This document shows, piece by piece, positions 3,160 through 25,373 of a stretch of 33,016 bases of DNA (positions are counted from its first letter, which is position 1; the number at the start of each line of letters is the position of its first letter). The DNA comes from Clostridia bacterium. Lineage in GTDB: Bacteria; Bacillota; Clostridia; Christensenellales; CAG-314. The stretch is taken from contig JAFVXX010000116.1 of assembly GCA_017500905.1 (NCBI GenBank), forward strand, positions 1 to 33,016. Direction: 5' to 3'. The position numbers and the translations under genes were made by a program. The notes below the pieces were generated by a model. That model saw only the letters and a program-made list of their open reading frames with translations. It ran no database searches and was not told where the DNA came from.

Positions 3160-6100
3160 ATGACAGCAAGAAAATGGAATTACCTAATGAAAACACTTGT
3201 AGTCGTTTTGCTTGTTGCAGTAATCGGCTTTACATTTGTTGCATGTGGTAAAAACAATTCCACTCCTGTCAGCGGAGTATATTACTACGAAGCAGAAGGA
3301 GAGGAATACCAAATCACGCTAAGTGAAGACTTTGGTTTTGTTCTTGATGCCAACGGCGAAATTCGTTCCGGCGAATATTTTGGCGACGGCACAAATTTGC
3401 GTCTTGTCTTTGGCAAGGACGACGAAACCACAGCTACACTTAAGGATGGTGTTTTTAAGCTTACTTACGGCACAGCAACCTTCAACATGTTGCAACGTGT
3501 CAACTACACAGTAACCTTCAACACCAACGGTGGCAATGCAGTTGACGCACAAAAGGTGCTAAACGGCAAAACAGCAACCAAACCGGTTGATCCTACTCGT
3601 GCAAACGACAGATTCTTGGGTTGGTACGTTGACAGCGCATTCAGTGCGCCATTCAACTTTGACACACAAATCATCACTCAAGACACTACCGTTTACGCAA
3701 ACTGGGAGGCAGAAGATCCCAATCAACCAGAGTTTGTTGTAAACTTTGATGCCAACTACCAAGGCGCAGCAGCAGTTGCATCTCAAACAACCTACAACGG
3801 CAAGCTTACAGCATTGCCCGAAGTAACACGTGAGGGATACGAATTTGCAGGCTGGTGGGCAAGCATGGTTGGCACAGGCGACAAGCTTTCCTACCAATGT
3901 GACACAAGCTACGTGTTTGCAAACAACACAACCTTGTACGCAATGTGGGTAGCTACAACGGGCGTTAAGCAACCTGTTGTTACAGTTGCTGGCAATGCTA
4001 TTTCCTGGACAACTACTGCCAACGCAGAGTACGTCTTTGAAGTAACAGGTCCACAAGGCTTTACAGCAATCAGCAAAACAACACAAGCAAACAGCGAGGT
4101 TGTAGACTTTGCAAATGCTCCAGCAGGCGAATACGCAATCAGCGTTGCTGCAAAGGTTGGACAAGAGCAATCTGCTGCAACGGTTGTCTACTACGTAAAC
4201 AAGGGCCTTGCAATGCCCGAGGTTTGGGTAGCAGAGCCTGCAACATTGGTTTACAGCCAAGTTCCAAATGCCGAAAAGTACATTGTTACAATCGAGTGTG
4301 GTAGCCAAGGTCACCAACACTACGTTGACAACGGCAAATCCACAACCCTTCCATTTGCAAACTGCGAAATGAAGGAGGGTGGCATTGTGTTTACCGTTAC
4401 TGCAGTAGCAAACGGCTACGCATCTGCAACCACAACCTACGTTTACGACAAGGTTTTGGCACAAGTTACAGGCGTAGCATTTGACAATGCAACCGAAACT
4501 CTTACTTGGGCACAAGTAGTGGGCGCAACCAACTACCAAGTAACCGTAACTGCAGGTCAACAAACCTACACCTACAACAACGGCACAAGCAACAGCTTCA
4601 GCTTGAAGCAATTTGCTCAAGGCGAAATCAGCGTAGCAATCGTAGCACAAAGCAAGGGCTACAACGCTTCGCAAGCAACAACCTATACATACAACAAGGC
4701 TACAGTAGCAACCCCAAGCAACATCAAGGTTGTTGGCAACCAAATCACTTGGGACGTAGTAGAGGGCGCAACCTACGACGTAAAGGTGGGTTCATCCGTA
4801 TACGCATGCGACACTGCAAGCTTTGACATCACAACCGTTGCAGGCTTGGCAGCAGGCACAAAGTACCAAGTAAGCGTACGTGCAAAGGCTGCAACAACAT
4901 CCAACTGGTCTGATGCTGTTACAGTTGGCTACCAAGTACTTGAAAACGTAAGCTACTACGCAAACGTTGCAACTTGGGACGCTGTAGCAGGCGCAACAAT
5001 GTACAAGGTAAAGGTTACCGGTGCAAGCGAATTTGAAGTAGAAGGCGCAAACTATGCTCCAATCACCTTTACACAAGCCGGTGCAAACACCATCGCAGTA
5101 TGCTTCTACAATGGCAGCCAATGGTCCAACTGGGTAGAAACAACTGTACAAGTATACGCAGTCGAGTTTGACGCACGTCTTGGTGCAGGCGTAGACGCAG
5201 TTTACGTAGCAACAGGCGACACAGTAGATCTTGACGTAACCACACGCAGCGGTTACGACTTTGCAGGTTGGTACAATGCTCCGGGTGGTGCAGCTACAGG
5301 CGCATACAACTACAAGGACGGCTTTGTTTACGACTTGACAACAAGCACAGTTTTGTTTGCAGCTTGGACCCCAATGAAGGCAACAGTATCCTACAACTTC
5401 ATGGGCATGGGCGATGCAACGGACTTTGGTACAACAACCGTAACCTTTGGCGAAGGCTACGCACTTAAGGTTCCAACTCCTCCAAGCACAGCATATTCGT
5501 TTGGTGGCTGGTTCGGCGACATAGCTTGCAGAGACAACAAGCTTACAGACGAGCACGGTAACAGCTTTACAAATTGGGACTACTACCAACCAGAGCGTAC
5601 AGTATACGCAAAGTGGTACCAACTTTTGACCTTTACAAAGCTTAACGATGGCACCTACCGTGTAAAGAAGGGTCCGGACATCAGCAAGGTTAAGGAAGTT
5701 ACAATCCCTGCAGAGTTTGACGGCGTTGCTGTTACACAAATTGCAGGCTTTGCATTTGAAAGATGCTACGAGCTGGAAGTAATCAACATTCCAGACACAA
5801 TCAAGTACATCGACTTGCTTGGTAAGGCATTTGACAAGTGTAGCAGACTTAAGGAAGTAAACGTATACCACGTCGAGGGCAACAATGAAATCGTTTACAA
5901 GTCCGACAACGGTATTTTGTTGGTATACGACAAAAACGGAACACAAAAGCTTGAGCTTGGTTTTGTTCCTGCAACAATGCAAGGCACGTTTGACGTACCT
6001 GCAGGCGTAGAAGTAATCCCAGAAAAGCTCTTTGCAAAGAGCTCCATCACCGAGATTACAATCCCAGCATCCGTCTCCATCATCGAGCCATATGCATTCC

Positions 6101-9100
6101 AAAACTGTGCAAGCCTCAAAAGGGTAACGTTCCTTCCTGCAGCAGAGGGAGAAACACCTGCACAACTTACAATCGGTCAATATGCATTTGCAGGCTGCAA
6201 GGCATTGGAAGAAATTACGTTGCCTGCAAACCTTGTAAATCTTGCTACAACAGAAAGTGGCGAGGTTACAGCATTCAACTCCTGCGTCAAGCTACAAAAC
6301 GTATTTGTTGCAGAGGGTAACCAAAACTACAAAAACCCAATTGACAAAACAGGTATTGTACTTAACAACGAGGGCGTGCTTGTATACGCTCCAAACGCAA
6401 TTACGGGTGCATACACAATCCCAGCAGGCGTTACAGCAATCGGTCCATACACATTTGCACAAGCAAAAGAGCTTACCGAAATTGTAATCCCGGCATGGGT
6501 AACAAGCGTACAACCATACGCATTCTACAACGCAACCAATCTTGGAAAGGTTACGTTTGAAGCAGCACAAGCAAGCTTTGGTGCAGTTACAATTGGCGAA
6601 TACGCATTTGCAAACTGTGCCTTCTTGACAGAGGTTGTATATCAAGCAGGCTCCAACGTAGTCGAGCTTGGCAACAGCGCATTTGCAGGCTGCTCGGCAT
6701 TGATGGCTCTTGAAATCCCAGCAACCGTAACAAAGGTTGGCAACAAGGTATTTAGTGGCTGTGGTGCAAGAACAGCAACAATCGCAGACGGCGAAAATGC
6801 AATCACATTTGGCACAGGCGTTTACGAAAATTGTAAAAATCTTTACGAAATCAAATTGCCGGCACGTGTAACTGCACTACCAGAGGGTGCATTTGCAGGT
6901 TGCGAAAGCTTGCGTAACGTAAAGGTTGACGAAGCAAACACCATCTTGAAGGATATCGACGGTGTATTGTTTACAAAGGACGGCAAGGAATTGTTGTTCT
7001 TCTCGCAAGTTCGTGGTGGCGACTACGAGGTACCGGCAGGCGTTGAAAAGATTGGCGCAGGCGTATTCCAAGACAACACAAGCTTGACAAACATCACGTT
7101 TGGTGCAGACGTCAAGGAAATTGGCGACTACGCATTTGCAGGCTGTACTGCAATTACTAACCTTCACATTGGCGCAAACGTAACACGCATCGGCAAGCAC
7201 GCATTTGATGGCTGCTCGCTTAAGACTGTAACGTTTGATCAAACGGGCACCGAAGAGCTTGTAATTGACGAGTACGCTTTCCAAGCAGGTATCAACAACA
7301 CCAGCACCTCTTCATCTAAGCTCGTTTTGGATATTCCAGCACGTGTAAAGGCAATTGGTAGCTACGCATTCTACAGCGCAAAATTTGTTGGCGTTAAGTT
7401 TAACGAAGGTCTTGTGACCATTGGCGACTACGCATTTGCAAACAACACCTACTTGTACGGCAACGACTACGACGACAAAGCTCGTGGTGGCACGCTTGCA
7501 TTCCCACAATCCGTTACAACAGTTGGAGATTACGCATTCTACAGGTGCTCAAAGCTTACTGTATTGAAGCTTGACACGGTAGAAAACTGGGGTGATTACG
7601 CATTCCGTGATTGTTCAGGTATTTCGGACGTTACGTTCCCAACTGCTTGGGAAGTAATTCCTAAGGGCTTCATGTGGATGTCTTCCTCCTCCGGTTTGAA
7701 GAACTTCAAGGGCACAGTAACAATTGCTAAGACAGTTAAGCAAATTGAGTACCGTGCATTCTACAGCGCATTTACATATGCAGCAGGTCTTGTATTTGAA
7801 GAAGGTGGCACGGCAGACCTTGTCATCGGTACAAAGGGTAAGGAAGACGTTCGTACAGGCGAATGGATTGACAATGGCAACTACTCGTCCGAGGCATTCT
7901 ACTACTTGGGCAAGAGTAACAGCAGCTTCAAGGTTGTAAATCTACCGGATCGTTTGACAATCATTGGTATTGCTTCCTTCAAGGGCGCAAGCAAGATTAC
8001 AACCTTCAACATTTCCGAAAACAGCAAACTTGCCAACATTGGTGAGGAAGCATTCTCCGGATGTAGTGCACTTACAAGCATCTTTATCCCAAGCACGGTT
8101 GTCAACCTGCCACAAACACCGGGCTACGACCAAGCATGTGCTATTGGTTACCGTGCATTCTACAACTGCAGCAAGCTTGCTACAATCACGTTTGAAAAGG
8201 ACGCAACGGCTACAGCAGCAACTGCTCCTTTGACACTTGACAGCCAAGCATTCTACGGCTGCAAGGCAAGCGGCTTTACAACTCTTGATCTTCCAGGCAG
8301 ATTGACCTACAACCTTGATGCAGACGGCGTAAGCTACTTGCTTCCGGGTATGGATCTAAACACCTTCAACGCAACCGACCTAAAGACAATCACAATTGAC
8401 GAAGGCGAAGGCTGCACGTTGATGGCAGAAAACAACATCATCTACTCTGTAGATCAAACACACCTTTACTACGCAGCTCCAAAGCTTACGGGTGATGTTA
8501 CAATTCCAAAGGAAACAACAGACATTGCTAAAAATGCATTCAAGTCCAACACAGGTCTTACAAAGATCATCTTTGAAAAGGGTGGCACGGCAGACCTTGT
8601 AATCGGCGACTCTGCATTTGAAGGCTGCACAAATATTACCGAAGCAGCAATGCCGGAGCGTGTTGTAACAATCGGCAGCAGAGCATTCTACAACTGCAAG
8701 CTTCTTCCATCCATCTACGTACCGGCATCCGTAACATCAATTGGCAGCAGTGCGTTCCAAGGTAGCGGCATGACTTACACCAGCATTGAGTTTGGACGTA
8801 ACGATGACGGCACAGTCAACTTCAAGAGCATTCCAAACAGCATGTTTAACGCATGGGAAGGCATGACCGAATGGGAAGTTCCGGAGGGCGTTGAAACAGT
8901 TGGTTCGGACTTTATTGCAAACACCAGCTTGCGTGATTCAATCACAAAGCTTACATTCCCAAGCACGTTGACAAGCATCAACAACCCAACAACCAACAGA
9001 CAAGTTTTGTATTCATTTGTTGGCTTGACGGAGGTTGTATTTAACAACAACAATGCACTTAAGTGCGAAGACGGCGCAATCTACACCAAGGACGGCGCAA

Positions 9101-11532
9101 CACTTCTTGCTGTACTACTTGGTATCGAACGTGACGAGTTTGTCGTAGCAGAAGGCACTGCAGAAGTTGCACCAAATGCATTCCAAAAGACAGACATCGC
9201 AAAGATTGTAATTGCAAGCACAGTTCAAAAGTTAAACAAAGCATTCGGTCAAAGCTACGTTGAAGACATCCAAATCCTTGACGGTGACATTCCATTGGTT
9301 CTTAACGGAGCTTTCGATAGCGTTCAATACGTAGATGAGATCACCATTCCTGCACGTGCAGTATCCATGATCAACTACCCACTGAGCTACTCCTACATCA
9401 AGAAGGTAAGCTTTGCTCCAAACTCCAAAATGGAAACAATGGGCGACATCTTCTGCTTTGCTTTGGGATTGGAAGAGATCTTCATTCCAAAGTCGGTAAA
9501 GACAATTACGATGTTGGAAGAGTTTAGCACTCCAACCTTGAAGAAGGTTGAGTTTGAGGAAGGTAGCCAACTTACCGAATGGGGCGTATTGTACGGCTTC
9601 TTGGAAGCTAAGTTGCTGCCTGACAAGCTTTGGGAGACAACAGATATCAATGGCGACGGCGTAGTCAACGGTGACGACATTGTTTTGACTCCTGTTGAAG
9701 TAATCAACTTCCCATTTGAAACAGTTTTGACTTATGCAGAGGGCTCGTTGGCAAACAGCACCATCACAAAGGCTAACTTTGCAGAAGGTCTTACAACCGT
9801 TCCTGCAAACTTGTTTAGCTTCTACCAAGATGAACAGGTCTTCTACAGAAAGAACTTCGTAACCGAGGTTACAATCCCAAGTACAGCTACAAGCATTGGT
9901 GCAAATGCATTTGCATACACAGGCATCACTGAAATGGTACTTCCGGAAGGCTTGTTGTCCATTGGCGACGGCGCATTTGAAGGCTGCAAACAGCTTACAA
10001 GCATCACGTGGCCAAGCACCTTGGAGCGCATCGGTAAGAGAGCGTTTAAGGATTGCGTAGGCTTGACAACCGTTACACTTGCTAACACACTTGTCAACGG
10101 CCCAGATCCAGCAGGTAGTGCTCGTGACGCAGAGCTTGGTCTTGACGACAGCGCATTTGAAAACTGCGTCAATCTTGAACAAGTTACGTTTACCGAAGGC
10201 GGCACAGCAGGCTTCTCCATCGGTAAGTACGCATTCAAAAACACACCAAAGCTTACAAGCATCACATTCCCAGAAAGACTTGTTGACGGCTTCTACTCCA
10301 ACAACGCCAACGGTGTTGACGAAGGCTTCATCCGTGAAGGCGCATTCCAAGGCTCCGGCTTGACAGAGGTTGTTCTTCCATACTCGCTAAGCTGCAAGAC
10401 ACTTGGTGTAAGAGCATTTGCAGATTGTGCAAACTTGACAAGCGTAACACTTGGCTACGGCATTGAAATGGTTAGCGAATACGCATTTGAAAACTGCGCT
10501 AAGCTGGAATACGCATTTATTCCTGCATCGGTTAAGACCTTTACAAATGCATTCTTTGGATGTGACAAGGTTGAACTTGACATTGACGCTGACAACCTTG
10601 ACTTTACAATGGTAAACGGCGTAATGTACAACGCTGCAGAAACTGCTATTATCTACGTAGCAAAAGATGCATCCGGCGAAGTAAATATGCCAAACACAGT
10701 AAAGACTGTTGCTCAAGGTGCATTCAAGGGCATTGCAGGCATTACTTCTGTAAAATTGAGCACCGCTTTGACAGCTGTAGAGGACTACATGTTTGAAGGC
10801 TCGGGCGTTACAAGCGTAGTAATTCCAAACGGCGTAACAACCATTGGCAAAAATGCATTTAAGAATTGCGTAAATCTTCAAACCGTAACCTTTGAAAAGG
10901 GCGGCACAAAGAATTTGACAATCGGCGAAGCTGCATTCCAAGGTTGTACGTCTCTACTTGCAGTAGAAATCCCAGATCGTTGCCGTTCTAACTCTAACGC
11001 AAGCAACCCAGTATATGCAGTTGGCAACAACGCATTCCAAGGTTGTACAGCATTGGCAAGTGTAACTTTTGAAGAACACACCGAAACAAGTGCGTTTGAA
11101 GAACTTTACTTATCCGGTATCCCAACAGACGTATTGACAATTGGCCATTACGCATTCCAAGGTTGTACGTCCTTGACAACAATCTCCTTCCCATACAGAT
11201 TGTTGGATGCTAACAGAGCAAATGGTGTTGTTGCTATCGGTAACTTCGCATTTGACGGTTGTACACAACTTGCAACTGTAAACTTCTGGACAAATCCAGA
11301 TACAGGCGATGTCGGTACATGGCACAGCTCTTACATTGCAATGGGTGGTAACGCATTTACGAATACTGCTTTGACAACTATCCGCATCCCATACAACACC
11401 GAATTTGCAAGAGCAACTAGCGAGGGTGGCGGATACTACGGCATTAAGTACTTCAATGGCGAGTGGGCTTCTTACACAATGGAAGGTCCATTTGTAAACG
11501 AAGGCGTTGAAATTACATACGGTGCAAACTAA
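3160..11532 (+). CDS. Giant (2790 aa) surface lipoprotein with InlB B-repeats, Fn3-like modules and an extensive BspA/TpLRR (LRR_5) array
   Basis: Signal peptide with lipobox FVAC (Cys29). Four B-repeat-like units (e.g. YTVTFNTNGG...FLGWY...VYANW; REGYEFAGWW...LYAMW). About five units of type LTWAQVVGATNYQVTV / ITWDVVEGATYDVKV. From ~aa 830 dozens of IPxxVxxIGxxAFxxCxxLxxIxF repeats. No C-terminal LPxTG, SLH or TM anchor. Confidence 0.92.
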   Translation: MTARKWNYLMKTLVVVLLVAVIGFTFVACGKNNSTPVSGVYYYEAEGEEYQITLSEDFGFVLDANGEIRSGEYFGDGTNLRLVFGKDDETTATLKDGVFKLTYGTATFNMLQRVNYTVTFNTNGGNAVDAQKVLNGKTATKPVDPTRANDRFLGWYVDSAFSAPFNFDTQIITQDTTVYANWEAEDPNQPEFVVNFDANYQGAAAVASQTTYNGKLTALPEVTREGYEFAGWWASMVGTGDKLSYQCDTSYVFANNTTLYAMWVATTGVKQPVVTVAGNAISWTTTANAEYVFEVTGPQGFTAISKTTQANSEVVDFANAPAGEYAISVAAKVGQEQSAATVVYYVNKGLAMPEVWVAEPATLVYSQVPNAEKYIVTIECGSQGHQHYVDNGKSTTLPFANCEMKEGGIVFTVTAVANGYASATTTYVYDKVLAQVTGVAFDNATETLTWAQVVGATNYQVTVTAGQQTYTYNNGTSNSFSLKQFAQGEISVAIVAQSKGYNASQATTYTYNKATVATPSNIKVVGNQITWDVVEGATYDVKVGSSVYACDTASFDITTVAGLAAGTKYQVSVRAKAATTSNWSDAVTVGYQVLENVSYYANVATWDAVAGATMYKVKVTGASEFEVEGANYAPITFTQAGANTIAVCFYNGSQWSNWVETTVQVYAVEFDARLGAGVDAVYVATGDTVDLDVTTRSGYDFAGWYNAPGGAATGAYNYKDGFVYDLTTSTVLFAAWTPMKATVSYNFMGMGDATDFGTTTVTFGEGYALKVPTPPSTAYSFGGWFGDIACRDNKLTDEHGNSFTNWDYYQPERTVYAKWYQLLTFTKLNDGTYRVKKGPDISKVKEVTIPAEFDGVAVTQIAGFAFERCYELEVINIPDTIKYIDLLGKAFDKCSRLKEVNVYHVEGNNEIVYKSDNGILLVYDKNGTQKLELGFVPATMQGTFDVPAGVEVIPEKLFAKSSITEITIPASVSIIEPYAFQNCASLKRVTFLPAAEGETPAQLTIGQYAFAGCKALEEITLPANLVNLATTESGEVTAFNSCVKLQNVFVAEGNQNYKNPIDKTGIVLNNEGVLVYAPNAITGAYTIPAGVTAIGPYTFAQAKELTEIVIPAWVTSVQPYAFYNATNLGKVTFEAAQASFGAVTIGEYAFANCAFLTEVVYQAGSNVVELGNSAFAGCSALMALEIPATVTKVGNKVFSGCGARTATIADGENAITFGTGVYENCKNLYEIKLPARVTALPEGAFAGCESLRNVKVDEANTILKDIDGVLFTKDGKELLFFSQVRGGDYEVPAGVEKIGAGVFQDNTSLTNITFGADVKEIGDYAFAGCTAITNLHIGANVTRIGKHAFDGCSLKTVTFDQTGTEELVIDEYAFQAGINNTSTSSSKLVLDIPARVKAIGSYAFYSAKFVGVKFNEGLVTIGDYAFANNTYLYGNDYDDKARGGTLAFPQSVTTVGDYAFYRCSKLTVLKLDTVENWGDYAFRDCSGISDVTFPTAWEVIPKGFMWMSSSSGLKNFKGTVTIAKTVKQIEYRAFYSAFTYAAGLVFEEGGTADLVIGTKGKEDVRTGEWIDNGNYSSEAFYYLGKSNSSFKVVNLPDRLTIIGIASFKGASKITTFNISENSKLANIGEEAFSGCSALTSIFIPSTVVNLPQTPGYDQACAIGYRAFYNCSKLATITFEKDATATAATAPLTLDSQAFYGCKASGFTTLDLPGRLTYNLDADGVSYLLPGMDLNTFNATDLKTITIDEGEGCTLMAENNIIYSVDQTHLYYAAPKLTGDVTIPKETTDIAKNAFKSNTGLTKIIFEKGGTADLVIGDSAFEGCTNITEAAMPERVVTIGSRAFYNCKLLPSIYVPASVTSIGSSAFQGSGMTYTSIEFGRNDDGTVNFKSIPNSMFNAWEGMTEWEVPEGVETVGSDFIANTSLRDSITKLTFPSTLTSINNPTTNRQVLYSFVGLTEVVFNNNNALKCEDGAIYTKDGATLLAVLLGIERDEFVVAEGTAEVAPNAFQKTDIAKIVIASTVQKLNKAFGQSYVEDIQILDGDIPLVLNGAFDSVQYVDEITIPARAVSMINYPLSYSYIKKVSFAPNSKMETMGDIFCFALGLEEIFIPKSVKTITMLEEFSTPTLKKVEFEEGSQLTEWGVLYGFLEAKLLPDKLWETTDINGDGVVNGDDIVLTPVEVINFPFETVLTYAEGSLANSTITKANFAEGLTTVPANLFSFYQDEQVFYRKNFVTEVTIPSTATSIGANAFAYTGITEMVLPEGLLSIGDGAFEGCKQLTSITWPSTLERIGKRAFKDCVGLTTVTLANTLVNGPDPAGSARDAELGLDDSAFENCVNLEQVTFTEGGTAGFSIGKYAFKNTPKLTSITFPERLVDGFYSNNANGVDEGFIREGAFQGSGLTEVVLPYSLSCKTLGVRAFADCANLTSVTLGYGIEMVSEYAFENCAKLEYAFIPASVKTFTNAFFGCDKVELDIDADNLDFTMVNGVMYNAAETAIIYVAKDASGEVNMPNTVKTVAQGAFKGIAGITSVKLSTALTAVEDYMFEGSGVTSVVIPNGVTTIGKNAFKNCVNLQTVTFEKGGTKNLTIGEAAFQGCTSLLAVEIPDRCRSNSNASNPVYAVGNNAFQGCTALASVTFEEHTETSAFEELYLSGIPTDVLTIGHYAFQGCTSLTTISFPYRLLDANRANGVVAIGNFAFDGCTQLATVNFWTNPDTGDVGTWHSSYIAMGGNAFTNTALTTIRIPYNTEFARATSEGGGYYGIKYFNGEWASYTMEGPFVNEGVEITYGAN

Positions 11533-11564
11533 TTGAAAAATTAGTTACAAACTAAATTAATTTT

Positions 11565-11607
11565 GGTTCGCGCGCCATGCGCCCACGTGTGCGTGGCGCG
11601 ACGAATC
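11565..11607 (+). other. GC-rich intercistronic stem-loop without a U-tract
   Basis: cgcgccatgcgc (11571-82) pairs with gtgcgtggcgcg (11589-600) with two G-U pairs, extended by ggttcg/cgaatc; no poly-T follows. Confidence 0.7.
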
Positions 11608-11745: not shown

Positions 11746-11770
11746 AGTTTGACTAAAGGAGATTTTTAAT

Positions 11771-16694: not shown

Positions 16695-16696
16695 GT

Positions 16697-19465
16697 ATGA
16701 CAAATTTCAAAATTGAATTTACCCATCCGTTGCTACTATTGACCTTGATACTTGCAATCGGCTTTGCCCTGTTTACGTTTTTCCGTTCGGGCAAAAGATA
16801 TCGCAACAATCGCAATCGCATTGTGTCGCTTTGCTGCCACATTGTAGTGATGCTGTTGTGTATCTGCGTGCTTGCAGGCATCAGCTTTTCGTACGATAAG
16901 CCTAACACCGAAAACGAAGTAATTTTGCTTGTTGACGTGTCGGACAGCGAGTACGAAGCAGTGCAAAGACGTAATGCCTTTGTAAAATCAGTAATCGACG
17001 AGGGCGGAGATATGTTTAAGATGGGCGTTGTGACGTTTGGTTACGACCAAGTGTACGCTGTTCCTCTTACAAACAATGCCGACACCATTTACGACAAATA
17101 TCTCAATGCAGAGTTGCCTGACACCTCGGCATCGGATATCGCATCGGCACTTGCATTTGCCAGACAGCAAATTACAGTGCCACAAACAGCAAAAATCGTG
17201 CTTATCAGCGACGGCATGCAAACAGATACCAACGCACTTGGCGTAATCAGGTCCATTGTTTCTGAGGGTATCAAGGTGGATACAGCCTACTACGCATCCG
17301 AATACGGCAACGACCTGCAGGTTGTTGGGGTAACCACTCCCGATTACAACGTAGTTGCGGGTGAAACGTTTAAGCTGGGAGTAGATCTCAACAGTACGTT
17401 TGTAGGCGAAGCAACCATCACACTAACCGATATGCACACCAATGGCAACGTAGTTAGAGAGTACACGGTAAACGTCGTCAACGAATTGCAAACAATCGAG
17501 CTGGACCACTCGTTGTCCTTGCCCGGCTTGCATCAATTGATTCTGAGCGTAAGTAGCAGCAACGACACCTTGCAAAACAACAATGTCTACTGCACCTACA
17601 TCGATTTGCAGGTGTTTGACAAAATTTTGTTGGTCGAAACCTACGAGCACGAGGCTGATACACTAAACGATTTGCTGATTTTGGATTACGAAGTAACAAG
17701 AGTAAACGCACGTGATCCACAATTTCCAACCACATTGGGCGAGCTTCGTCAATACGACCAAATCATCATGGCCAACGTTGCAAGCGTTGATTTGCCTGCC
17801 GGATTTGACGTCACGTTGACGCAGTACGTCAAGGAATTGGGTGGTGGCTTGCTGACAGTTGGTGGCAACAGGTACGATGAGAACGGTAAGCCTGTTTTGG
17901 GCGAATATGACCTGCCTGTACCCAATGCTTACAACCCTGTTGACAACTACAACGTCAACAACCCCAACGCAAGCGAGCACCCCAACCCAACCTACCAGGA
18001 TTTGCTACCTGTCAAGGCCGAAAAGTACTCGCCACCTGTAGGCGTAATCATCATCATCGACCGTTCGGGCTCCATGATGAACAAATACGGCACCGACTCT
18101 AAGCTGGACTGGGCAAAAATTGGTGCAAAGGCATGTGTCGAGACGTTGAACGCACGTGACTACGTTGGCATAATGACGTTGGAGGATTACTACAACGAAG
18201 ATGCCAGCCTTACACCCGTTACTCACAAGAGTGAGGTGTTTAAGGCTATCGACAGCATTGAGTTTGGCGGTGGTACGGTATTTAAGGGCGCTTTGGAAAG
18301 AGCGGGCGCATCGTTGCTTGCAAACAAGTCCATCGAAAAGCGTCACATCATCTTGATTTCGGACGGCTTGCCATACGATGCAGACGCATATATGACGCCT
18401 GCCGGCTTTGGTCCTGAAATTATGCGTCTCAAAAAGCTGGGCGTAACCTTGTCCACAGTAATGGTTGCAGTTGAAAACCAAACTGCTGAGGACTTGATGA
18501 AAAACTGTGCTGAGGTGCTTGGTGGTGGTCGTTACTACAACGTACTTGACTACAAGGAATTTACCACCACAATGATTGACGAGCTTACCGTCAAGGAAAT
18601 CAAGGCATACAACCCGATAGACTTTACCCCTGTTGTTTCTACTCAAAACTCAGTCCTAAACGGAATTGACCTAAACGCAATCCCTCAATTGGGTGGCTTT
18701 TACGGATCACAAACAAAGCGTGGTGCAACCGAAGTGTTGTCTGCCGAGTTTGTTCCTGTGTATTCCACTTGGAAGGTGGGCAAGGGCCGTGTGGGCAGCT
18801 TTATGTGCGACCTAAACGGTACTTGGTCAAAAAATTGGTTTGAAAACAGCACCGGTAAGCAATTGATCAACAACATAGTCAACAACAGCTTTCCAACTGA
18901 AAACGTGGAAGGTCACGAAATTTCACTACAAATCAAGCAAAAGAATTACCAGCATGAATTAGGCATTGCTGCTCCAATGGCCGATGGCGATTGGCTGGAG
19001 GTGACGGTAAGTAATTTGTCTGATACACAACAAAAGGCTCAGGTGTTTAAGCCAAACGTGGACGGCGGATATGCACGTGTCAACTTTGCCATCACACAAA
19101 CAGGCTTGCACAAAATTGAAGTACAAAAGTACAACGCTTTAGGACAAAAGGTGGGCAAGCCAAAGGTAGAGTACAAGGAGTTTTCCTACTCGCAGGAGTA
19201 CGACTCCTTTGCCGATGCAACCACAGGCGTGGATTTGTTGGACAAGCTTTCTGAGCTTGGTGGCGGCAAAAGCATCAACAGCGCCAAAGATGTGTTTGAA
19301 AATGCTAAGCTTAGCATCCACATTGTCATCAATCCAAAGCCAACGTTTGTAATCATTTCGCTTGTGTTGTTCTTGCTGGATATTGCAGTACGTAAGTTTA
19401 AGTTTAAGTGGCCACACGAAATTGTTCGTGACAGAAAGATCAAAAAACAATTAAAGCAAAAGTAA
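16697..19465 (+). CDS. Membrane protein with two vWA domains, an Ig-like segment and a class I glutamine-amidotransferase-like (DUF1355-type) domain
   Basis: N-terminal double TM (FTHPLLLL...); vWA1 LLVDVSDSE...IVLISDG; YDQIIMANV...YVKELGGGLLTVGG...LLPV; vWA2 IIIDRSGSM...GGT...IILISDG; WKVGKGRVGSFMCD...WSKNW; C-terminal TM FVIISLVLFLLDIAVRK. Confidence 0.85.
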   Translation: MTNFKIEFTHPLLLLTLILAIGFALFTFFRSGKRYRNNRNRIVSLCCHIVVMLLCICVLAGISFSYDKPNTENEVILLVDVSDSEYEAVQRRNAFVKSVIDEGGDMFKMGVVTFGYDQVYAVPLTNNADTIYDKYLNAELPDTSASDIASALAFARQQITVPQTAKIVLISDGMQTDTNALGVIRSIVSEGIKVDTAYYASEYGNDLQVVGVTTPDYNVVAGETFKLGVDLNSTFVGEATITLTDMHTNGNVVREYTVNVVNELQTIELDHSLSLPGLHQLILSVSSSNDTLQNNNVYCTYIDLQVFDKILLVETYEHEADTLNDLLILDYEVTRVNARDPQFPTTLGELRQYDQIIMANVASVDLPAGFDVTLTQYVKELGGGLLTVGGNRYDENGKPVLGEYDLPVPNAYNPVDNYNVNNPNASEHPNPTYQDLLPVKAEKYSPPVGVIIIIDRSGSMMNKYGTDSKLDWAKIGAKACVETLNARDYVGIMTLEDYYNEDASLTPVTHKSEVFKAIDSIEFGGGTVFKGALERAGASLLANKSIEKRHIILISDGLPYDADAYMTPAGFGPEIMRLKKLGVTLSTVMVAVENQTAEDLMKNCAEVLGGGRYYNVLDYKEFTTTMIDELTVKEIKAYNPIDFTPVVSTQNSVLNGIDLNAIPQLGGFYGSQTKRGATEVLSAEFVPVYSTWKVGKGRVGSFMCDLNGTWSKNWFENSTGKQLINNIVNNSFPTENVEGHEISLQIKQKNYQHELGIAAPMADGDWLEVTVSNLSDTQQKAQVFKPNVDGGYARVNFAITQTGLHKIEVQKYNALGQKVGKPKVEYKEFSYSQEYDSFADATTGVDLLDKLSELGGGKSINSAKDVFENAKLSIHIVINPKPTFVIISLVLFLLDIAVRKFKFKWPHEIVRDRKIKKQLKQK

Positions 19466-19467
19466 AA

Positions 19468-19508
19468 GTTGCAAAGTGTACGCCCTTTGGGGCGTGCACT
19501 ACAGCAAC
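19468..19508 (+). other. Intercistronic stem-loop without a U-tract
   Basis: agtgtacgccc (19475-85), loop tttg, gggcgtgcact (19490-500), plus outer gttgc/gcaac pairing; followed by the RBS of the next gene rather than poly-T. Confidence 0.7.
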
Positions 19509-19523
19509 GTTTAAGGAGTAAAT

Positions 19524-22232
19524 ATGAAAAAATTCAGGGTAGTCCTGATATGTATAATATGCCTGTGCGTAATGCTGTCCCTTACGGCGTGTGCCAAGAT
19601 TAAGCTTGCAACGCCCATAGGTGTACGTATCAATTACGACAAGCTTATGCTAAACTGGGTTTCGGTAAACGATGCCGTTGCATACGAGGTTTCGGTGGAC
19701 GGCGAAGTGGTTGAGGAGGTACGCAAAACCAGTTGGGATATGTCGTTTATGGCTCCGGGCGAATACCAAATTGCCGTGCGCGCCGTGGGTGATGGAAACG
19801 TCACAAAAACGTCCGAGTGGTCTCAACCCGTACAGTTTATCAGAGATGCAGAAACAGGATTGGAGTTTAAGCTTTACAACAATTCTTCCGAATATATGGT
19901 TGTTGGTATAGGCAAATCGGGCGCAAACGTTGTCATTCCCGAATACTATCGCCAAAAGCCCGTCACAAGGATTTACGAAGCGGCTTTTGCCAACCATACA
20001 CGTGTCAAATCTGTGGTAGTAGGCTCCAACGTCACCGTAATTGACGACAAGGCGTTTGACAACTGCTCATTTATGGAAACAATCACCTTTTTGGCTGATG
20101 AAATGCAGTCCATTGGCGCAAACGCTTTTCAACGCTGCTGGGCATTGAAGGAAATTACAATCCCCAAGGGAATTACCACCATTGGCCCGTACACCTTCAA
20201 TTACTGCAAAGCGCTGGAAAAAGTGACCTTCAACGACGATTTGTACGTCATTGACAGCTACGCCTTTGACGGCTGTTCAAGTCTTAAGGAGGTTGTTTTG
20301 CCCGATTCGGTGGTTGCAATTGGCGAATATGCATTTAACAACTGCGATGAGCTCACATCCGTAACCTTTGGCAAAAATTTGCTTCAGCTTGGGCAATTCA
20401 GCTTTGCTAAGTGCGAAAAGCTTGCAACACTTGATTTTGGCGAAAGCAAGCTGCAAATTGTAGACCAATATGCGTTTACAGAGTGCTCTTCCTTGACAGA
20501 GGTTGCATTGCCCAGCGAGGTAATGGCCTTGGGTAATGCAGTTTTTAGCTTTTGTACCAATTTGGCCTCTGTTACCATTGGTGACAAGGTGCAACACATT
20601 GGCGCATATCTTTTGCACGAAACAGAGCTGCTAAACAAGGCAGAGGGCTTGGTTTATTTGGGCAATTGGCTTGTGTACAACAAGGACCCATTGGCAAGCA
20701 GCGTTGAGTTTAAGGAGGGCACGGTTGGTGTTGCCAACCAAGCCTTTGACAGCAACTCCGGCTTGGTAGTGGTAATTATGCCCGACACCATTAAGTACGT
20801 AGGTGCCTACGCATTTGTTGATTGTACCTCTTTGATGAGCGTTACGCTTAGCAATCAGCTTACCGAAGTACCATCTCATGCATTTAGTGGTTGTATCAAT
20901 TTGATTTCAGTAGTTTTTGGCTCAGAGATTGAATCTATTGGGCAGTACGCATTTTACAATTGCAGCAGTCTTTTAAACATAACGTTGCCTAATTCGGTTA
21001 CGAAAGTTGGATTGTATGCATTTAGACATACAAAGCTTTGGACGGACAGCACTCCGGGCGACTTTGTTTACGTTGGCAACTGGGCAGTAGGCTTTAAGCC
21101 CTCCATGTCGCCCATCATGCCTGAAACCTTTAAGGTAGGTACAGTAGGCATTGCCGATTACGCATTTTACGAAATGGAAGCAAACTACGTCACATTCCCA
21201 ACAACAATACAGTACTTGGGCGATTACAGCTTCTTCCGTGTCAGTATGGTATATCTAAAGCTGTCCAGCAGCCTCAAAAAGGTTGGTGACTATGCGTTTT
21301 TCCAATGCGTCGACCTTATGGAGGTGGTCATCCCTGAGGGTGTCGAGGAAATAGGTCGTTCGGCATTTTACCAAATTCAAGCAACCAACATACAATTGCC
21401 TCAATCAGTAAAGACAATTGGCATGTACGCATTTTACAGGCCTGCCAAGCTTATAACCGTCAATCTTGGTGGTGTCGAAACAATCGGCAGAGGAGCATTT
21501 TACAACGCACCATATCTAAGCGAGCTTGTGCTGCCTCAATCCACAAAGATTGTCGAGTCGTACGCATTTTACGGGGCTGCGACAATGGAAGCATTGACTC
21601 TAAACGAGGGATTGCAGGAAATTGGTGAGTATGCCTTTGCCAAGGCAGCAGCGGTTAAGTCGTTGAAAATCCCAAATAGTGTAACTACCATTGGCAGATA
21701 TGCCTTCAGAGACGCCATTTCTTGTCAAAGCATAGTGCTTGGCAATGCATTGCAAGCTGTTGGTGACGGCGCATTTATGAACAGTGGTGTAACAGCGTTG
21801 ACCGTTGTGGGCAACAACGTAGCCTTTGGTAAATATGTCTTCCGTGGATGCACCGATTTGCAAAGTGTGGTAATTACCGACTCTGTAAAATCTTTTGATA
21901 TGCATGCTTTTTACGGAAGTAAAAAAGCAACGTTCTTCATCGAAAACAACACCGACATGACAAACTGGAACGCAAGGTGGAACAGCTCTAAGGGTCCGGT
22001 TTTGTCGGGTGTAAACCTTTCGGCAGACAATTCGTACGTCGAAAGCTTTGTAAAAACAAATGACACTTTGGTGGTGGATACAGGCAAGGTTGCCTGTGCC
22101 CCTGTACGTGACGGCTTCGTCTTTGCAGGCTGGTCTACCACTTTGGGTGGAGCAAAAGAGTACACAATGGACACGTTGAAAACTGCCCCAGACGGCACAA
22201 CGTTGTACGCTTTGTGGGAGCCTAATGCGTAG
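19524..22232 (+). CDS. BspA-type LRR (LRR_5) surface lipoprotein with an N-terminal Fn3-like module and a C-terminal InlB B-repeat
   Basis: Lipobox LTAC (Cys23); LNWVSVNDAVAYEVSVDG module; many LPDSVVAIGEYAFNNCDELTSVTF-type repeats; C-terminal APVRDGFVFAGWSTT...TLYALWE; AAGGAG RBS. Confidence 0.92.
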   Translation: MKKFRVVLICIICLCVMLSLTACAKIKLATPIGVRINYDKLMLNWVSVNDAVAYEVSVDGEVVEEVRKTSWDMSFMAPGEYQIAVRAVGDGNVTKTSEWSQPVQFIRDAETGLEFKLYNNSSEYMVVGIGKSGANVVIPEYYRQKPVTRIYEAAFANHTRVKSVVVGSNVTVIDDKAFDNCSFMETITFLADEMQSIGANAFQRCWALKEITIPKGITTIGPYTFNYCKALEKVTFNDDLYVIDSYAFDGCSSLKEVVLPDSVVAIGEYAFNNCDELTSVTFGKNLLQLGQFSFAKCEKLATLDFGESKLQIVDQYAFTECSSLTEVALPSEVMALGNAVFSFCTNLASVTIGDKVQHIGAYLLHETELLNKAEGLVYLGNWLVYNKDPLASSVEFKEGTVGVANQAFDSNSGLVVVIMPDTIKYVGAYAFVDCTSLMSVTLSNQLTEVPSHAFSGCINLISVVFGSEIESIGQYAFYNCSSLLNITLPNSVTKVGLYAFRHTKLWTDSTPGDFVYVGNWAVGFKPSMSPIMPETFKVGTVGIADYAFYEMEANYVTFPTTIQYLGDYSFFRVSMVYLKLSSSLKKVGDYAFFQCVDLMEVVIPEGVEEIGRSAFYQIQATNIQLPQSVKTIGMYAFYRPAKLITVNLGGVETIGRGAFYNAPYLSELVLPQSTKIVESYAFYGAATMEALTLNEGLQEIGEYAFAKAAAVKSLKIPNSVTTIGRYAFRDAISCQSIVLGNALQAVGDGAFMNSGVTALTVVGNNVAFGKYVFRGCTDLQSVVITDSVKSFDMHAFYGSKKATFFIENNTDMTNWNARWNSSKGPVLSGVNLSADNSYVESFVKTNDTLVVDTGKVACAPVRDGFVFAGWSTTLGGAKEYTMDTLKTAPDGTTLYALWEPNA

Positions 22233-22256
22233 TACCACTCAAAAATGGAGGAAACA

Positions 22257-25200
22257 ATGAAACACAGCAAAAAATTACTTATTGCAGCGTTGCTGTTAAC
22301 CTTTGTTTTGGCATTGTCGGCACTTGTTGCCTGCGCGCCAAAGGTTACTCTTCTCAGTGTAGAGCTGCAACAAACAACCTACGTTGTAGGACAACAGCTA
22401 AAAGGCTCGCTTAAGGTAGACGTAAAGGGCGAGGAGCAGCTTTGGGAATTTACCCAAGAGGGTGTAACCGTCAGTGGCTACAATCCAAATCAATTGGGTG
22501 AGCAAACCGTCACCGTAAGCTACGACGAGCAAACCGTGTCTGCAAAGGTAACCGTTGTGCCTCGTGTTGTTGCACAGGGTATCAAGCAAGACTACGTTGT
22601 GGGCGACAAATTTGACACTACGCAAGGCACGCTTAGATTTACACGTGACGACGGCACCACCAAGGATGTATTTTTTACCGATGCCAATCTGACGCTGACG
22701 GGCTTTGCATCCAACGTAGAAGCATTGCCACTTACAATCACTGCAACCTACGTTGACAACGGCACAACCTTGACAGGCGAGTTTGCAGTAAACGTATATG
22801 GCATCGACAACTTGTCGTTGACACGTCCCGTCAATCGCCAATACGCAAGCCACGACACAGCATTGGACCTAAACGGCTGCTTTTTGACAGTAACAACGGC
22901 ATTGGGACAAAGCTTTGTTCAAGTTACCGAAAATATGTGCAGCGGCTTTGACCTTTCGGTTGTAAACGAGGCAAATCCAACTGCTACGCAAACCATCACG
23001 GTTACATATGCAGGCAAAAGCAAGGCGTTTGAAATTGACATCACCTACAGCGACGTTTCGTATATCAAGGACAACGTTGCAGCTTTGGCCGAGGTTGATT
23101 GGTCCGGCGAGGAAACACCAACCTTGACGCCTGAGCAAGGCGAGCTTGCACGCAACATGGCCGAAAAGTACTTTGCACTTAGCGATGTTCACAAGGCAAT
23201 GATTTCGCCGGAAGAAAGTGCCGTTGTAATGAAAAATGCAGCAAGATATGTGTTTGGCTTGTATCTTGAGCAGTGGAATGTGTACGAAGCAGCTTTTGCC
23301 TTGGAAAGCTACCAAGCGGTAAAGGATGCATATACTCAGCTAAGTGTTGAGTCTGCGCCCCTTCGTGTTTACGGCCGTTTGCTGGAGAAAATTTCGGATG
23401 AGTTTGGCGCAAACGAGTTTTTCAAAACAATTACAATCAAAAGCTACCTTTCGGGTGTAGTAACCGAAGAGCAATTTGCTGGCAACCTTGCAATCTTCAA
23501 TTACGCAATCACGCTGCACGAGGGCTTGACTGTACCTGCCAATTGGCAAGCAGCTGAGTTGACTCAATATGCGCAACAAATTGACAACGTTGTGCTTGCA
23601 ATCAACTCTAACAGCTACCGTGGTAGTGCCTACCGTCAATTGTACTCAGTGCTTACCAACTGGAGAGAAAACAAAGACTACTTTGACATTTTGTACACGT
23701 ACTACTTCAATGCCGAAAATACAAACGTGCTGCTTAGCTTGGTAGATATTTACTTGCCGGGCCCAATGGAAGAGATGTATATTTGCATGGAAGAGGCGTT
23801 TATTCAAGCAGTCGGAATGCAAAACAAACAAGTCGTCGATTCATCCTTGTTTGTGCTTAATTACAATAGGGCATACGAAACGGCAAAGCAAATTGCATCC
23901 GGCGACAACGCAATGTACAAATTTTTGTACGCAAACAGCAAGCTTAAGGGCTTTTTGGTAGACGGCGACGGCAACGATGCCGAAATCAGCTTTGCAGGTC
24001 TGATGTACTACCTGACAGTTACAGATATCCTACAATTTGGTTGGAACAAGCACCAAGGTCCTATGCTTGGAAACGAGCAATTTGACGATATGTGGGACAA
24101 GTATCTGGTTGTTCTTGAGGGTGCGCTTACTCCTGATTACGTCAAGGGTGAGCAATTCCCAATTGACCTAAAGGCAATGCTTGACACCTTTGTTACACTT
24201 GCACCAAACACTCAATATGAGTTTATTCGTTCGGTCAATGCGTTTTACGATCAATCCTTCCCAACGTATGCGTTGGATACTTCCGAGTACTGCTACAGCT
24301 ACTTTACCTACTTCATCGTTGAGTACTACGAAACTGTAGTAACTCCAGAGGAAATGAAGGTGCTTAAGGATATGTTGGTTGCTATCGAATGCCACAGCTT
24401 GACCAACCATCGTGCCGGCTCGCACACCGAGTTTTTGACACGTATGGAAGCTGTTGCGACGGCGTTTGGCAACCTTAGCGATGAGCAAAAGGCAAGCTTT
24501 ACAGCCAACTTTGGCACTGCATACAGCCGTTACGAGCTGTTGTGGAAGATTGGCACCAATCAAGTGACCGGTCCCGAAGCAGACTTTGGCGAAGAGTTTA
24601 ATCCACTTGTTCAAGCAATCCTCGATGCAATCAGCCAAATGGCAGAAATCGAAAGAGCAATTTCGGCAGGCGAATTGACTGCAAACCGTGGTGTTGTTCG
24701 TTTCCTTTCGGCATTTGAATACGCAGAGTATCTAAGCGACTACATCATTGAAAATGCGTCTGCAGAGGCTGTACACAACTTCTACTACAACAAGTTTGTG
24801 CCATTGGACGGTCAAACATTTGTTACGTTGGAGTGGTTGATGTACTACTACCGTATCAGCTACGGCAATTTGCTGTACAGCGCAATGGTGGACTCTCGCA
24901 CCGCATTGGCTCAAATATACTTTGACACCAATTTGGAAGAGTTTTTGATCAAAGCATATCCTGTAATTTGGTACAACCCACCAGAAAACTTGACCAACAT
25001 CTACACGGACGCTGTGATGCTTGCAATCAATTCGTTTAGAGATTTGACTCAAGGCGACAAAATGCTGCTTATGGCACTTGACGTAAACAACGACTACTAC
25101 GGCAACGTAGACAAGTTTTTCAAGCTTGTACTAAACGAGCAATGTGTTCCCGTTGCAGAAAAGCTTGTTCAACTGGAGCAAACCTACCTTGCATACGTAG

Positions 25201-25373
25201 CAAAAACAGCCGAAATCACTTTGCAAAACTTGGTTGACCTAAGCGCACAAGTAACCGAGCTTAAAAATGCTTTGCAAGGCACAGACGTAAACAACTTTGA
25301 AGCCTTTTTGTTGGAGATGTACAACTACTACGTAACTGCTGTACAAGAGCTTCAACAACAAAGCCAAGCTTAA
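22257..25373 (+). CDS. Lipoprotein with about three bacterial Ig-like (Big_3-type) domains followed by a long, predicted alpha-helical region of unknown function
   Basis: GGAGGA at 22247-52 favours ATG 22257. Lipobox LVAC (Cys26). Repeats TTYVVGQ...VSGYNPNQLGEQTVTVSY, QDYVVGDKFD...LTGF...ITATY, RQYASHD...CSGFD...QTITVTY. The remainder is A/E/L/Y-rich without recognisable motifs. Confidence 0.82.
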   Translation: MKHSKKLLIAALLLTFVLALSALVACAPKVTLLSVELQQTTYVVGQQLKGSLKVDVKGEEQLWEFTQEGVTVSGYNPNQLGEQTVTVSYDEQTVSAKVTVVPRVVAQGIKQDYVVGDKFDTTQGTLRFTRDDGTTKDVFFTDANLTLTGFASNVEALPLTITATYVDNGTTLTGEFAVNVYGIDNLSLTRPVNRQYASHDTALDLNGCFLTVTTALGQSFVQVTENMCSGFDLSVVNEANPTATQTITVTYAGKSKAFEIDITYSDVSYIKDNVAALAEVDWSGEETPTLTPEQGELARNMAEKYFALSDVHKAMISPEESAVVMKNAARYVFGLYLEQWNVYEAAFALESYQAVKDAYTQLSVESAPLRVYGRLLEKISDEFGANEFFKTITIKSYLSGVVTEEQFAGNLAIFNYAITLHEGLTVPANWQAAELTQYAQQIDNVVLAINSNSYRGSAYRQLYSVLTNWRENKDYFDILYTYYFNAENTNVLLSLVDIYLPGPMEEMYICMEEAFIQAVGMQNKQVVDSSLFVLNYNRAYETAKQIASGDNAMYKFLYANSKLKGFLVDGDGNDAEISFAGLMYYLTVTDILQFGWNKHQGPMLGNEQFDDMWDKYLVVLEGALTPDYVKGEQFPIDLKAMLDTFVTLAPNTQYEFIRSVNAFYDQSFPTYALDTSEYCYSYFTYFIVEYYETVVTPEEMKVLKDMLVAIECHSLTNHRAGSHTEFLTRMEAVATAFGNLSDEQKASFTANFGTAYSRYELLWKIGTNQVTGPEADFGEEFNPLVQAILDAISQMAEIERAISAGELTANRGVVRFLSAFEYAEYLSDYIIENASAEAVHNFYYNKFVPLDGQTFVTLEWLMYYYRISYGNLLYSAMVDSRTALAQIYFDTNLEEFLIKAYPVIWYNPPENLTNIYTDAVMLAINSFRDLTQGDKMLLMALDVNNDYYGNVDKFFKLVLNEQCVPVAEKLVQLEQTYLAYVAKTAEITLQNLVDLSAQVTELKNALQGTDVNNFEAFLLEMYNYYVTAVQELQQQSQA

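Follow-up and report, generated by a model that had tools for sequence, protein, structure and literature searches.

Operons that join a MoxR ATPase to a DUF58 protein and to BatA-type membrane proteins with vWA domains are very widespread, and the phenotypes reported for them concern aerotolerance, envelope integrity and defence. To our knowledge, no clients of these Bat-type MoxR operons have come to light over decades. The locus described here raises the question of whether surface proteins encoded beside such a module are its dedicated partners. It lies on contig JAFVXX010000116.1 of the Clostridia bacterium assembly GCA_017500905.1. The window, that is, the whole stretch of DNA that was analysed, is this entire 33-kb contig (33,016 nucleotides), part of a metagenome-assembled genome of 1.06 Mb that is 74% complete. 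The nearest public relatives of the contig are uncultured Clostridia/Eubacteriales from gut samples. Eight genes, g1 to g8, encode in order a giant leucine-rich repeat (LRR) lipoprotein, a membrane protein with three transmembrane (TM) segments, MoxR, DUF58, two vWA membrane proteins, a second LRR lipoprotein and an Ig/helical lipoprotein. The reading tentatively favoured is that the cluster is a lineage-specific elaboration of the Bat/MoxR-proper envelope module, acting as a modular cell-surface binding apparatus. It starts from the observation that the LRR and Ig lipoproteins are inherited in one block with the core: g7 always, g1 nearly always, and g8 or another protein in the last slot.

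This inheritance was followed in contigs from one genome per species. Scanning with an alignment of DUF58 proteins yielded 595 confirmed relatives, and the best 80 loci, from about 77 assemblies as judged by contig prefixes, were kept. They comprise a close set of 55 loci with DUF58 identity of at least 57% and a distant set of 25 loci at 38-56%. Open reading frames (ORFs) in these loci were labelled by BLASTP against the window proteins and by a lipobox pattern. An LRR_5-type gene stands directly after g6 in all 48 evaluable close loci (one, L030, counted after correction of the overlap filter), and 42 of these 48 genes carry a lipobox. On the other side, 35 close loci could be evaluated: a giant LRR gene adjoins g2 upstream in 28 and lies within two ORFs in 33. 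The exceptions are three loci with a spurious intervening ORF of at most 110 aa (L035, L038, L042), two with one extra gene (L073, L080) and two, L033 and L095, in which the giant LRR gene is absent upstream of g2. Between these borders g3-g4-g5-g6 are contiguous in 66 of 67 loci. The first-pass annotation had treated the 350-aa product of g2 as a flanking accessory; among evaluable loci, its gene is the one immediately before moxR in all 41 of the close set and in 16 of 19 of the distant set, which makes the product rather a core membrane subunit. The slot after g7, evaluated in 46 loci, is the variable one: it holds a g8-like gene in 17, another lipobox gene in 13, another LRR gene in 8 and some other gene in 4, and the next gene is on the opposite strand in 4. 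Thus the expected conservation of an Ig/helical protein of about 1040 aa as a neighbour is borne out in those 17 loci, the slot itself being variable. Orthologous clusters without adjacent LRR or Ig lipoproteins, the outcome named beforehand as speaking against a dedicated partnership, were not encountered among the 55 close loci.

The block is also found where the surrounding genes are not. On contigs of sufficient length, four genomes of other genera and one congener show the order again. Genome G018 has a g1-like gene, g2, MoxR, DUF58, g5, g6, g7 and g8; G019 has all of these except g8; G015 and G024 have MoxR through g7; and the congener G002 has g2 through g8. None of the ten genes flanking the cluster in the window was found in the loci of G015, G018, G019 and G024. 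As flanking synteny is lost between genera, conservation of the cluster is not mere collinearity. Chance adjacency was considered as well and was rejected on the 48 of 48 adjacency together with the lost synteny. The arrangement has held although the surface proteins have diverged to about 30-35% identity.

Block inheritance could also arise through co-regulation without contact. In that case the module would be a general envelope or stress system, and the LRR genes would share its operon because the same conditions call for both, or because an ancestral order has not yet decayed. This account, which carries a real but clearly minor probability, finds precedent in the Bat-type operons of Leptospira and Riemerella, tied to stress or envelope phenotypes, and in the P. 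aeruginosa PA4317-23 defence pathway, all without dedicated surface clients in the excerpted accounts of them. It is also in keeping with the abundance of LRR_5 and lipobox genes in the genome. However, the g6-g7 gap is tight in relatives (median 11 nt, with 17 nt for g7-g8), adjacency holds in 48 of 48 loci despite a protein identity of only about 34%, and flanking synteny is gone between genera.

The distant loci bear on the same issue. They keep the core g2-MoxR-DUF58-g5-g6 and combine it with other lipoproteins. Upstream of it, 14 of 21 neighbours are of the lipobox or LRR kind, and downstream of it 10 of 22, against a genome background of 8.7% of ORFs of at least 250 aa with the same pattern. 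Among ten such neighbours scanned with Pfam, the families found are Big_2 arrays, aBig_2, Flg_new with discoidin and polysaccharide deacetylase, CotH and Big_3; three have no family. Filling of the same positions by different lipoproteins argues against co-regulation, while four distant cores (L096, L097, L102 and L104) that have no lipoprotein neighbour speak for it.

Several individual distant loci have features of their own. A CotH-kinase-family lipoprotein (L099:11711-13555) and a lipoprotein with Flg_new, discoidin and polysaccharide-deacetylase domains (L098:1197-4889) stand beside distant cores, so the partner slot takes enzymes besides repeat proteins. In L028:12395-18429 (genome G025) the place before the core is taken not by lipoproteins but by an 839-aa protein that weakly matches DUF7408 and a 555-aa g2-like membrane protein; two further ORFs before this core are taken, from their N-terminal residues only, as an ABC ATPase and a permease. 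The MoxR ORFs at L098:8385-9983 and L101:8363-9985 encode 532-540 aa, about 190 more than usual, which reflects an extended N-terminus or else a start called too far upstream.

The membrane and surface parts also travel apart from the ATPase. Paralogous cassettes (L083, L084, L086, L092) keep an LRR lipoprotein, g2, g5 and g6 and have no MoxR, and a cassette on contig 2 of G019 (L110) has neither MoxR nor DUF58. MoxR-less cassettes occur in two gene orders, and some genomes hold two or three cassettes, G019, G041 and G043 being among those with several. Two of three genomes tested that have a MoxR-less cassette encode a MoxR orthologue elsewhere (77-82% identity). In addition, contig 11 of G019 encodes a 447-aa protein (L111:8742-10085) in which a g2 membrane module is joined to Cys-rich repeats and an LRR_5 ectodomain; its g2 part, made up of the TM hairpin, the conserved cytoplasmic loop and the third TM segment, is 34% identical over 133 residues (E 2e-25), and its LRR_5 match scores 80 bits. 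The gene lies away from any MoxR cluster and adjoins one for a 502-aa LRR_5 protein. A word-based search for fused g2 modules returned four proteins. Retention of the LRR lipoprotein in rearranged MoxR-less cassettes and the one g2-LRR fusion both speak against co-regulation alone. The cluster as a whole is patchy: of 24 genomes searched from the same family, only 5 have a MoxR orthologue of at least 75% identity, and the cluster was not found in the congener G001, which is 88% complete.

In the window, all eight genes are on the plus strand at the positions previously assigned to them, and the tight coupling described for moxR, DUF58 and the two vWA genes could be read directly from the junctions. 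The coordinates are collected in the table. Genes g3 and g4 overlap by one base in TAATG (13895-13899), g4 and g5 overlap in ATGA (14790-14793), and g5 and g6 are separated by 2 nt in TAA-GT-ATG (16692-16699).

Features of the eight-gene cluster and its borders (positions counted from the first letter of the window)
Feature	Position	Strand	Match
Promoter-like site ahead of g1, TTGACT-18-TAAAAT, TG before the -10	3056-3085	+	10/12 consensus
g1, 2790-aa giant BspA-type LRR lipoprotein	3160-11532	+	
g1-g2 spacer, 238 nt, structured, with the g2 ribosome-binding site	11533-11770	+	
Second promoter-like site, TTTACA-17-TAAAAT with TG	11717-11745	+	10/12 consensus
g2, 350-aa three-TM protein	11771-12823	+	
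g3, 345-aa MoxR AAA+ ATPase	12860-13897	+	
g4, 298-aa DUF58 protein	13897-14793	+	
g5, 634-aa BatA-type vWA membrane protein	14790-16694	+	
g6, 922-aa double-vWA membrane protein	16697-19465	+	
g7, 902-aa BspA-type LRR lipoprotein	19524-22232	+	
g8, 1042-aa Ig/helical lipoprotein	22245-25373	+	
Intrinsic-terminator-like hairpin of 13 pairs, bidirectional (A-run ahead, U-run behind)	25389-25418	+	

The strong terminator claimed after g8 is upheld, as its hairpin and U-run (25389-25418) top the terminator-like sites of the region. The promoter proposed ahead of g1 fares less clearly: the site does match the consensus and has the TG, but promoter-like sites are not enriched over shuffled sequence (15 against 13.4 ± 3.5). 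Terminator-like matches in two scans numbered 17 against 16.5 and 16 against 15.7 in shuffles, and a few weak plus-strand matches lie within coding regions, such as one of 6 pairs at 14429-14447. A further promoter-like site (25428-25456, 11/12) lies ahead of the following gene, SDR (25477). The spacer between g1 and g2, whose structure and promoter-like site the first-pass annotation had missed, folds far better than shuffled versions (minimum free energy -77.6 kcal/mol, z -6.5, none of 200 as good), with an 18-pair GC-rich hairpin directly after the g1 stop and then a second long hairpin. These hairpins could be a terminator without a U-run, a processing site or a regulatory leader; no Rfam family matched anywhere in the window, spacer included. 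The g1-g2 gap is long in all 31 related loci measured (median 196 nt, range 68-645), whereas the remaining junctions from g2 to g8 are tight (medians -4 to 42 nt). Because the spacer has its own promoter-like site and a strong fold, and the later junctions are tight, two units, g1 alone and g2-g8, appear at least as likely as a single eight-gene transcript. No RNA run was listed for positions 10000-19999 of the window, and four gut DNA runs gave just short contigs of low depth from this strain or very similar ones, with many foreign contigs on moxR. Before g1 and its promoter-like site there is a 425-nt non-coding stretch (window 2734-3159) with long A-runs and direct repeats of the 'TTGCAAAAAAA' kind.

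The cytoplasmic part of the module is of a familiar type. Neither MoxR nor DUF58 has a TM segment by hydropathy. The g3 product matches AAA_3 (PF07726) with 208.8 bits (cut-off 27) and AAA_lid_2 with 64 bits, has intact Walker A (GVPGVGKT, 49-56) and Walker B (DEINR, 115-119) motifs and matches PDB 2r44 (E 3.6e-71). With its adjoining DUF58 partner, it is by sequence a MoxR-proper (MRP) protein. The RavA subfamily was rejected (NF010054, 17.6 bits against a cut-off of 681), as was the MoxR-vWA-beta-propeller ternary system, since the bpMoxR score of 40.5 bits is far below that for AAA_3. The g4 product matches DUF58 with 104 bits and has a DCSAS sequence (88-92) of the metal ion-dependent adhesion site (MIDAS) type, in which D88, S90 and S92 are invariant across 85 sequences. 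Over 67-85 sequences the DxSxS MIDAS motifs of g4, g5 and g6 (two in the latter) are invariant or nearly so.

The membrane proteins g2, g5 and g6 each have three TM segments predicted from hydropathy. In g5 an N-terminal TM hairpin comes first and a TM segment stands near the C-terminus, with a vWA domain (DSSAS, 95-99) and then a beta-rich part in between; the hairpin loop carries a charge of +10 and the C-terminal tail +3. Its Pfam matches are the BatA N-terminal domain PF07584 (37.5 bits, cut-off 25.9) and VWA_2, present in 76 and 74 of 76 relatives, respectively, and this BatA-type vWA membrane protein gives the locus its Bat-type character. The g6 product has the same hairpin and C-terminal segment (loop +6, tail +9) around two vWA domains (DVSDS, 80-84; DRSGS, 455-459), with D80, D172, D455, S457, S459 and D556 invariant across 67 sequences; no PDB relative was found for it by sequence. 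The basic loops and tails, under the positive-inside rule, place the large middle parts of g5 and g6 outside, and with them all three vWA/MIDAS ectodomains are predicted to be outside the cell. This topology agrees with that of the homologous Borrelia protein BB0173, whose vWA domain was found by experiment to be exposed to the periplasm, according to the excerpted text (PMC5700661).

The third membrane subunit, g2, is predicted to have a cytoplasmic N-terminus (+4), a TM hairpin, a cytoplasmic loop of about 55 residues, a third TM segment and an ectodomain of about 200 residues with a charge of -32. In the AlphaFold2 model (pLDDT 86) TM3 leads into a beta domain (171-242), which a disordered, acidic linker joins to a helical hairpin. 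This beta domain is weakly like the InlB B-repeat 2y5p (probability 0.90, E 0.48), and a fold search gave no PDB match at E ≤ 0.001. At the N-terminus, similarity to DUF4175 (PF13779, profile positions 12-98 of 825) stays at 20.5 bits against a cut-off of 27.3, with 16.5 in one distant relative. The cytoplasmic loop (73-126) is the best-conserved stretch of g2, with D85, E91, R92, T95 and R111 invariant across 53 sequences, and the cytoplasmic loops of g5 (25-56) and g6 (29-43) are likewise prominent in the alignment consensus lines. Relatives in which the N-terminal module turned up all have the MoxR cluster too. A HMMER search with whole g2 gave 15810 matches at E ≤ 0.001, mostly unrelated multi-repeat Flg_new proteins; among the 150 best representatives, 83 resemble g2 over its full length in a single stretch and measure 331-437 aa, a lower bound for the family. 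Where g2-module proteins carry a source name, it is "hypothetical protein". A complex prediction of g2(1-165), g5(1-95) and g6(1-75) with DUF58 scored 0.30 against a mark of 0.32, in a run without controls.

Outside the membrane, the three lipoproteins announced by the first-pass annotation have predicted lipoboxes, FVAC in g1 (Cys29), LTAC in g7 (Cys23) and LVAC in g8 (Cys30); Cys30 is invariant among 18 g8 relatives. Pfam finds LRR_5 in about 15 stretches of g1 (E 2e-224, 732.7 bits) behind three Flg_new repeats. In g7 an N-terminal beta domain, LRR_5 repeats (E 7.5e-154, 504.7 bits) and a C-terminal Flg_new repeat follow one another. Both proteins thus combine LRR_5 repeats with a secretion signal in the manner of BspA-like proteins. 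The recurrence of an InlB B-repeat-like module in the 2790-, 350- and 902-aa proteins also proved correct: Flg_new occurs three times in g1, Flg_new_2 in g2 (27.1 bits, cut-off 23.6) and TIGR02543 in g7 (23.7 bits, cut-off 20.95), the g7 match to Flg_new being below the Pfam cut-off (25.9 against 27). Conservation along g7 is uniform, at 0.41-0.64 per 30-residue block, and so reveals no docking domain. In g8 three Big_3 Ig-like domains (36-267) precede an all-alpha domain of about 770 aa (AlphaFold2 pLDDT 83). Searched with this domain together with the rest of g8, Foldseek finds just Ig arrays and generic alpha-solenoids at a TM-score of about 0.1. The top VIA-align match, 4fdw_A (Z 10.9), covers the third Ig domain only, with generic helical bundles elsewhere, and the protein-atlas leads are only of Big_3 type, all under 0.9. 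A g8 protein was found in just 2 of 40 relatives searched.

The lipoboxes are relevant to a further account, which is quite unlikely: by analogy with an archaeal prediction discussed below, the complex might serve specifically to export or insert giant surface proteins. The lipoproteins are indeed very large (902-2790 aa), a secretion role is favoured for the similarly composed archaeal complex in the excerpted text (PMC5898192), and g6 has a GATase1-like stretch of flavodoxin-type fold, below threshold at 24.5 bits against a cut-off of 27. On the other hand, g1, g7 and g8 have ordinary signal peptides with lipoboxes. Signal peptides of this kind direct Sec export and lipoprotein processing, which weakens the case for a separate exporter. 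Nor do g2, g5 and g6, with three TM segments each, look like a channel, and Pfam and NCBIfam scans of the eight proteins turned up neither a secretion ATPase nor a secretin.

Divergence across the locus follows the predicted location of the proteins. Median identity to the window proteins falls from 81% for MoxR (53 relatives) and 65% for DUF58 to 38% for g5, 37% for g6, 34% for g7, 31% for g2, 29% for g1 and 28% for g8. This gradient is in keeping with a motor that is conserved and surface parts that diversify. The same contrast between fast-evolving surface parts and conserved cytoplasmic ones may be turned towards outside-in sensing, where the LRR and Ig lipoproteins would detect ligands of the host, of phages or of competitors and the vWA proteins would signal to DUF58 and MoxR, along the lines proposed for MoxR-vWA conflict systems and the actinobacterial Esr pathway. 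LRRs are classic sensor modules. Analogous arrangements have been described, in the excerpts of the respective papers: MoxR-vWA pairs of oral Actinobacteria with cell-surface filamentous sensors activate a defence response (PMC13622651), and in the Bifidobacterium PFNA cluster MoxR and DUF58 accompany a secreted FN3 protein for which TNF-alpha binding is reported (PMC8430577). Sensing is nevertheless improbable here, as no output part (kinase, phosphatase, FHA, transcription factor or effector) was found in the eight proteins or in the neighbours scanned with Pfam, which cover part of the 80 loci, and MoxR scores 208.8 bits with AAA_3 against 40.5 with bpMoxR.

Under the favoured reading, a surface-binding apparatus built on the Bat/MoxR-proper module, the best-supported arrangement has the lipoproteins working together with the vWA scaffold outside the cell. 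MoxR, via DUF58, would engage the conserved cytoplasmic loops of g2, g5 and g6, and ATP hydrolysis would remodel these membrane proteins from inside. Remodelling would set the state of the vWA/MIDAS scaffold outside, which in turn would hold, position or release the lipoprotein adhesins. Variable ligand specificity for host, food-particle or microbial surfaces in the gut would come from the LRR and Ig parts, and several cassettes may share one ATPase. Action of MoxR-DUF58 on the loops is modelled on MoxR-vWA pairs that remodel a bound target. A permease or channel for uptake was not seen among the eight proteins with Pfam. A bolder version, which must be considered doubtful, is that the cluster is a bacterial counterpart of integrin-style inside-out control, with MoxR and DUF58 switching MIDAS/vWA-dependent binding and release of LRR adhesins, from exchangeable cassettes that share an ATPase.

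Several points weigh against the favoured reading. Contact between lipoproteins and scaffold is argued from gene context. The locus counts come from kin genomes and reflect one inherited arrangement, not independent events; the sample is skewed to close relatives, and both the ORF caller and the lipobox pattern are home-made and permissive. The lineage is rich in genes of the relevant kind: the permissive pattern flags a lipobox-like start in 43 of 493 ORFs of at least 250 aa in this genome (8.7%), and at least 12 contigs of this small genome have LRR_5 matches, at least 11 of them besides the locus contig. Between g1 and g2 the spacer carries its own promoter-like site and strong structure. 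The four distant cores with no lipoprotein neighbour indicate that the core needs none strictly adjacent, and G042, which has a MoxR-less cassette, has no MoxR at E ≤ 1e-20 in a genome of uncertain completeness. Fusion of g2 with an LRR protein was seen once, and PF13306 occurs in none of the 28 g2-module proteins listed by the profile search. Finally, we know of no explanation, for any Bat-type system, of how a cytoplasmic ATPase acts across the membrane through loops of 15-55 residues.

Comparison with known systems defines what is particular to the locus. In B. fragilis the Bat operon includes the TPR proteins BatC and BatE as well as BatD. The Bat operon, Borrelia bb0170-bb0176 and the Leptospira bat genes share with the locus the order of MoxR, then DUF58, then vWA membrane proteins with the BatA N-domain. 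They also share a vWA domain facing away from the cytoplasm, experimental for BB0173 in the excerpted text (PMC5700661) and predicted here. In contrast to them, the locus has no TPR (BatC/BatE type) or BatD families in the eight proteins (Pfam, E ≤ 0.01), has an extra three-TM protein, g2, before moxR and has giant LRR/Ig lipoprotein genes fixed in the block; its host is also a monoderm-type clostridium rather than a diderm.

The PFNA cluster (pkb2, fn3, aaa-atp, duf58, tgm) of Bifidobacterium, likewise Gram-positive and from the gut, resembles it in the MRP-type MoxR with DUF58 and in a large secreted protein with protein-binding domains, its members being species-specific and fast-evolving, as described in the excerpted source (PMC8430577). 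PFNA differs, in the same excerpts, by its Ser/Thr kinase, transglutaminase-like membrane protein and FN3 domains and by having no BatA-type vWA proteins. The surface proteins of the present locus are LRR lipoproteins, and no kinase, FN3 or transglutaminase family is among the eight proteins with Pfam, so that the locus falls outside the PFNA type.

Makarova, Galperin and Koonin (2015) predicted from gene context an archaeal complex around arCOG01314 with a role in secretion or membrane remodelling, according to the excerpted text (PMC5898192). Within one conserved neighbourhood it has a MoxR/GvpN-family ATPase, secreted Ig-vWA proteins, small membrane proteins with 2-3 TM segments and Ig-like surface proteins, a composition similar to that of the locus. 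Unlike the locus, it is archaeal, contains a membrane-anchored flavodoxin-fold DUF4350/GldG-like protein and S-layer-type proteins and, within those excerpts, has no DUF58, BatA N-domain or LRR lipoproteins (PMC5898192). The MoxR-vWA conflict systems (Kaur et al. 2020) and Esr likewise tie a MoxR and vWA pair to variable cell-surface proteins. Theirs, so far as the excerpts go, are beta-propeller sensors with kinase, phosphatase and FHA or toxin effectors, whereas none of these was found in the locus; a Pfam scan of the eight proteins gave no match to beta-propeller, kinase, FHA or toxin families. The terms "DUF58", "BatA" and "leucine-rich" are absent from the main text of Kaur et al. 2020, and "LRR" occurs once, in the reference list.

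BspA and Listeria InlB share with g1 and g7 the LRR_5 repeats and InlB B-repeat (Flg_new) in surface-anchored proteins, and differ in having been studied as stand-alone adhesins or invasins; no report of either in an operon with a MoxR module was found in the open-access full text searched. Within those full texts there was also no paper joining MoxR, DUF58 or BatA with LRR or BspA-type lipoproteins, in agreement with the earlier statement that no characterized system has this composition. What is particular to the locus is the third conserved membrane subunit g2 and the lipoprotein genes fixed in the block.

Elsewhere on the contig there is a spoIIE gene, and just upstream of it a 547-aa lipobox protein (28362-30005) matches Peptidase_C39_2 and Peptidase_C39, which are papain-like. 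No bacteriocin-exporter context surrounds this gene.

The association of surface-protein genes with the module over dozens of gut Clostridia species supplies concrete candidate partners for Bat-type systems. In these abundant uncultured gut bacteria with small genomes, the cluster is a candidate device for adhesion or surface organization, possibly a major one. If the integrin-style version were true, Bat-type MoxR operons would gain their first defined extracellular partners together with a mechanism.

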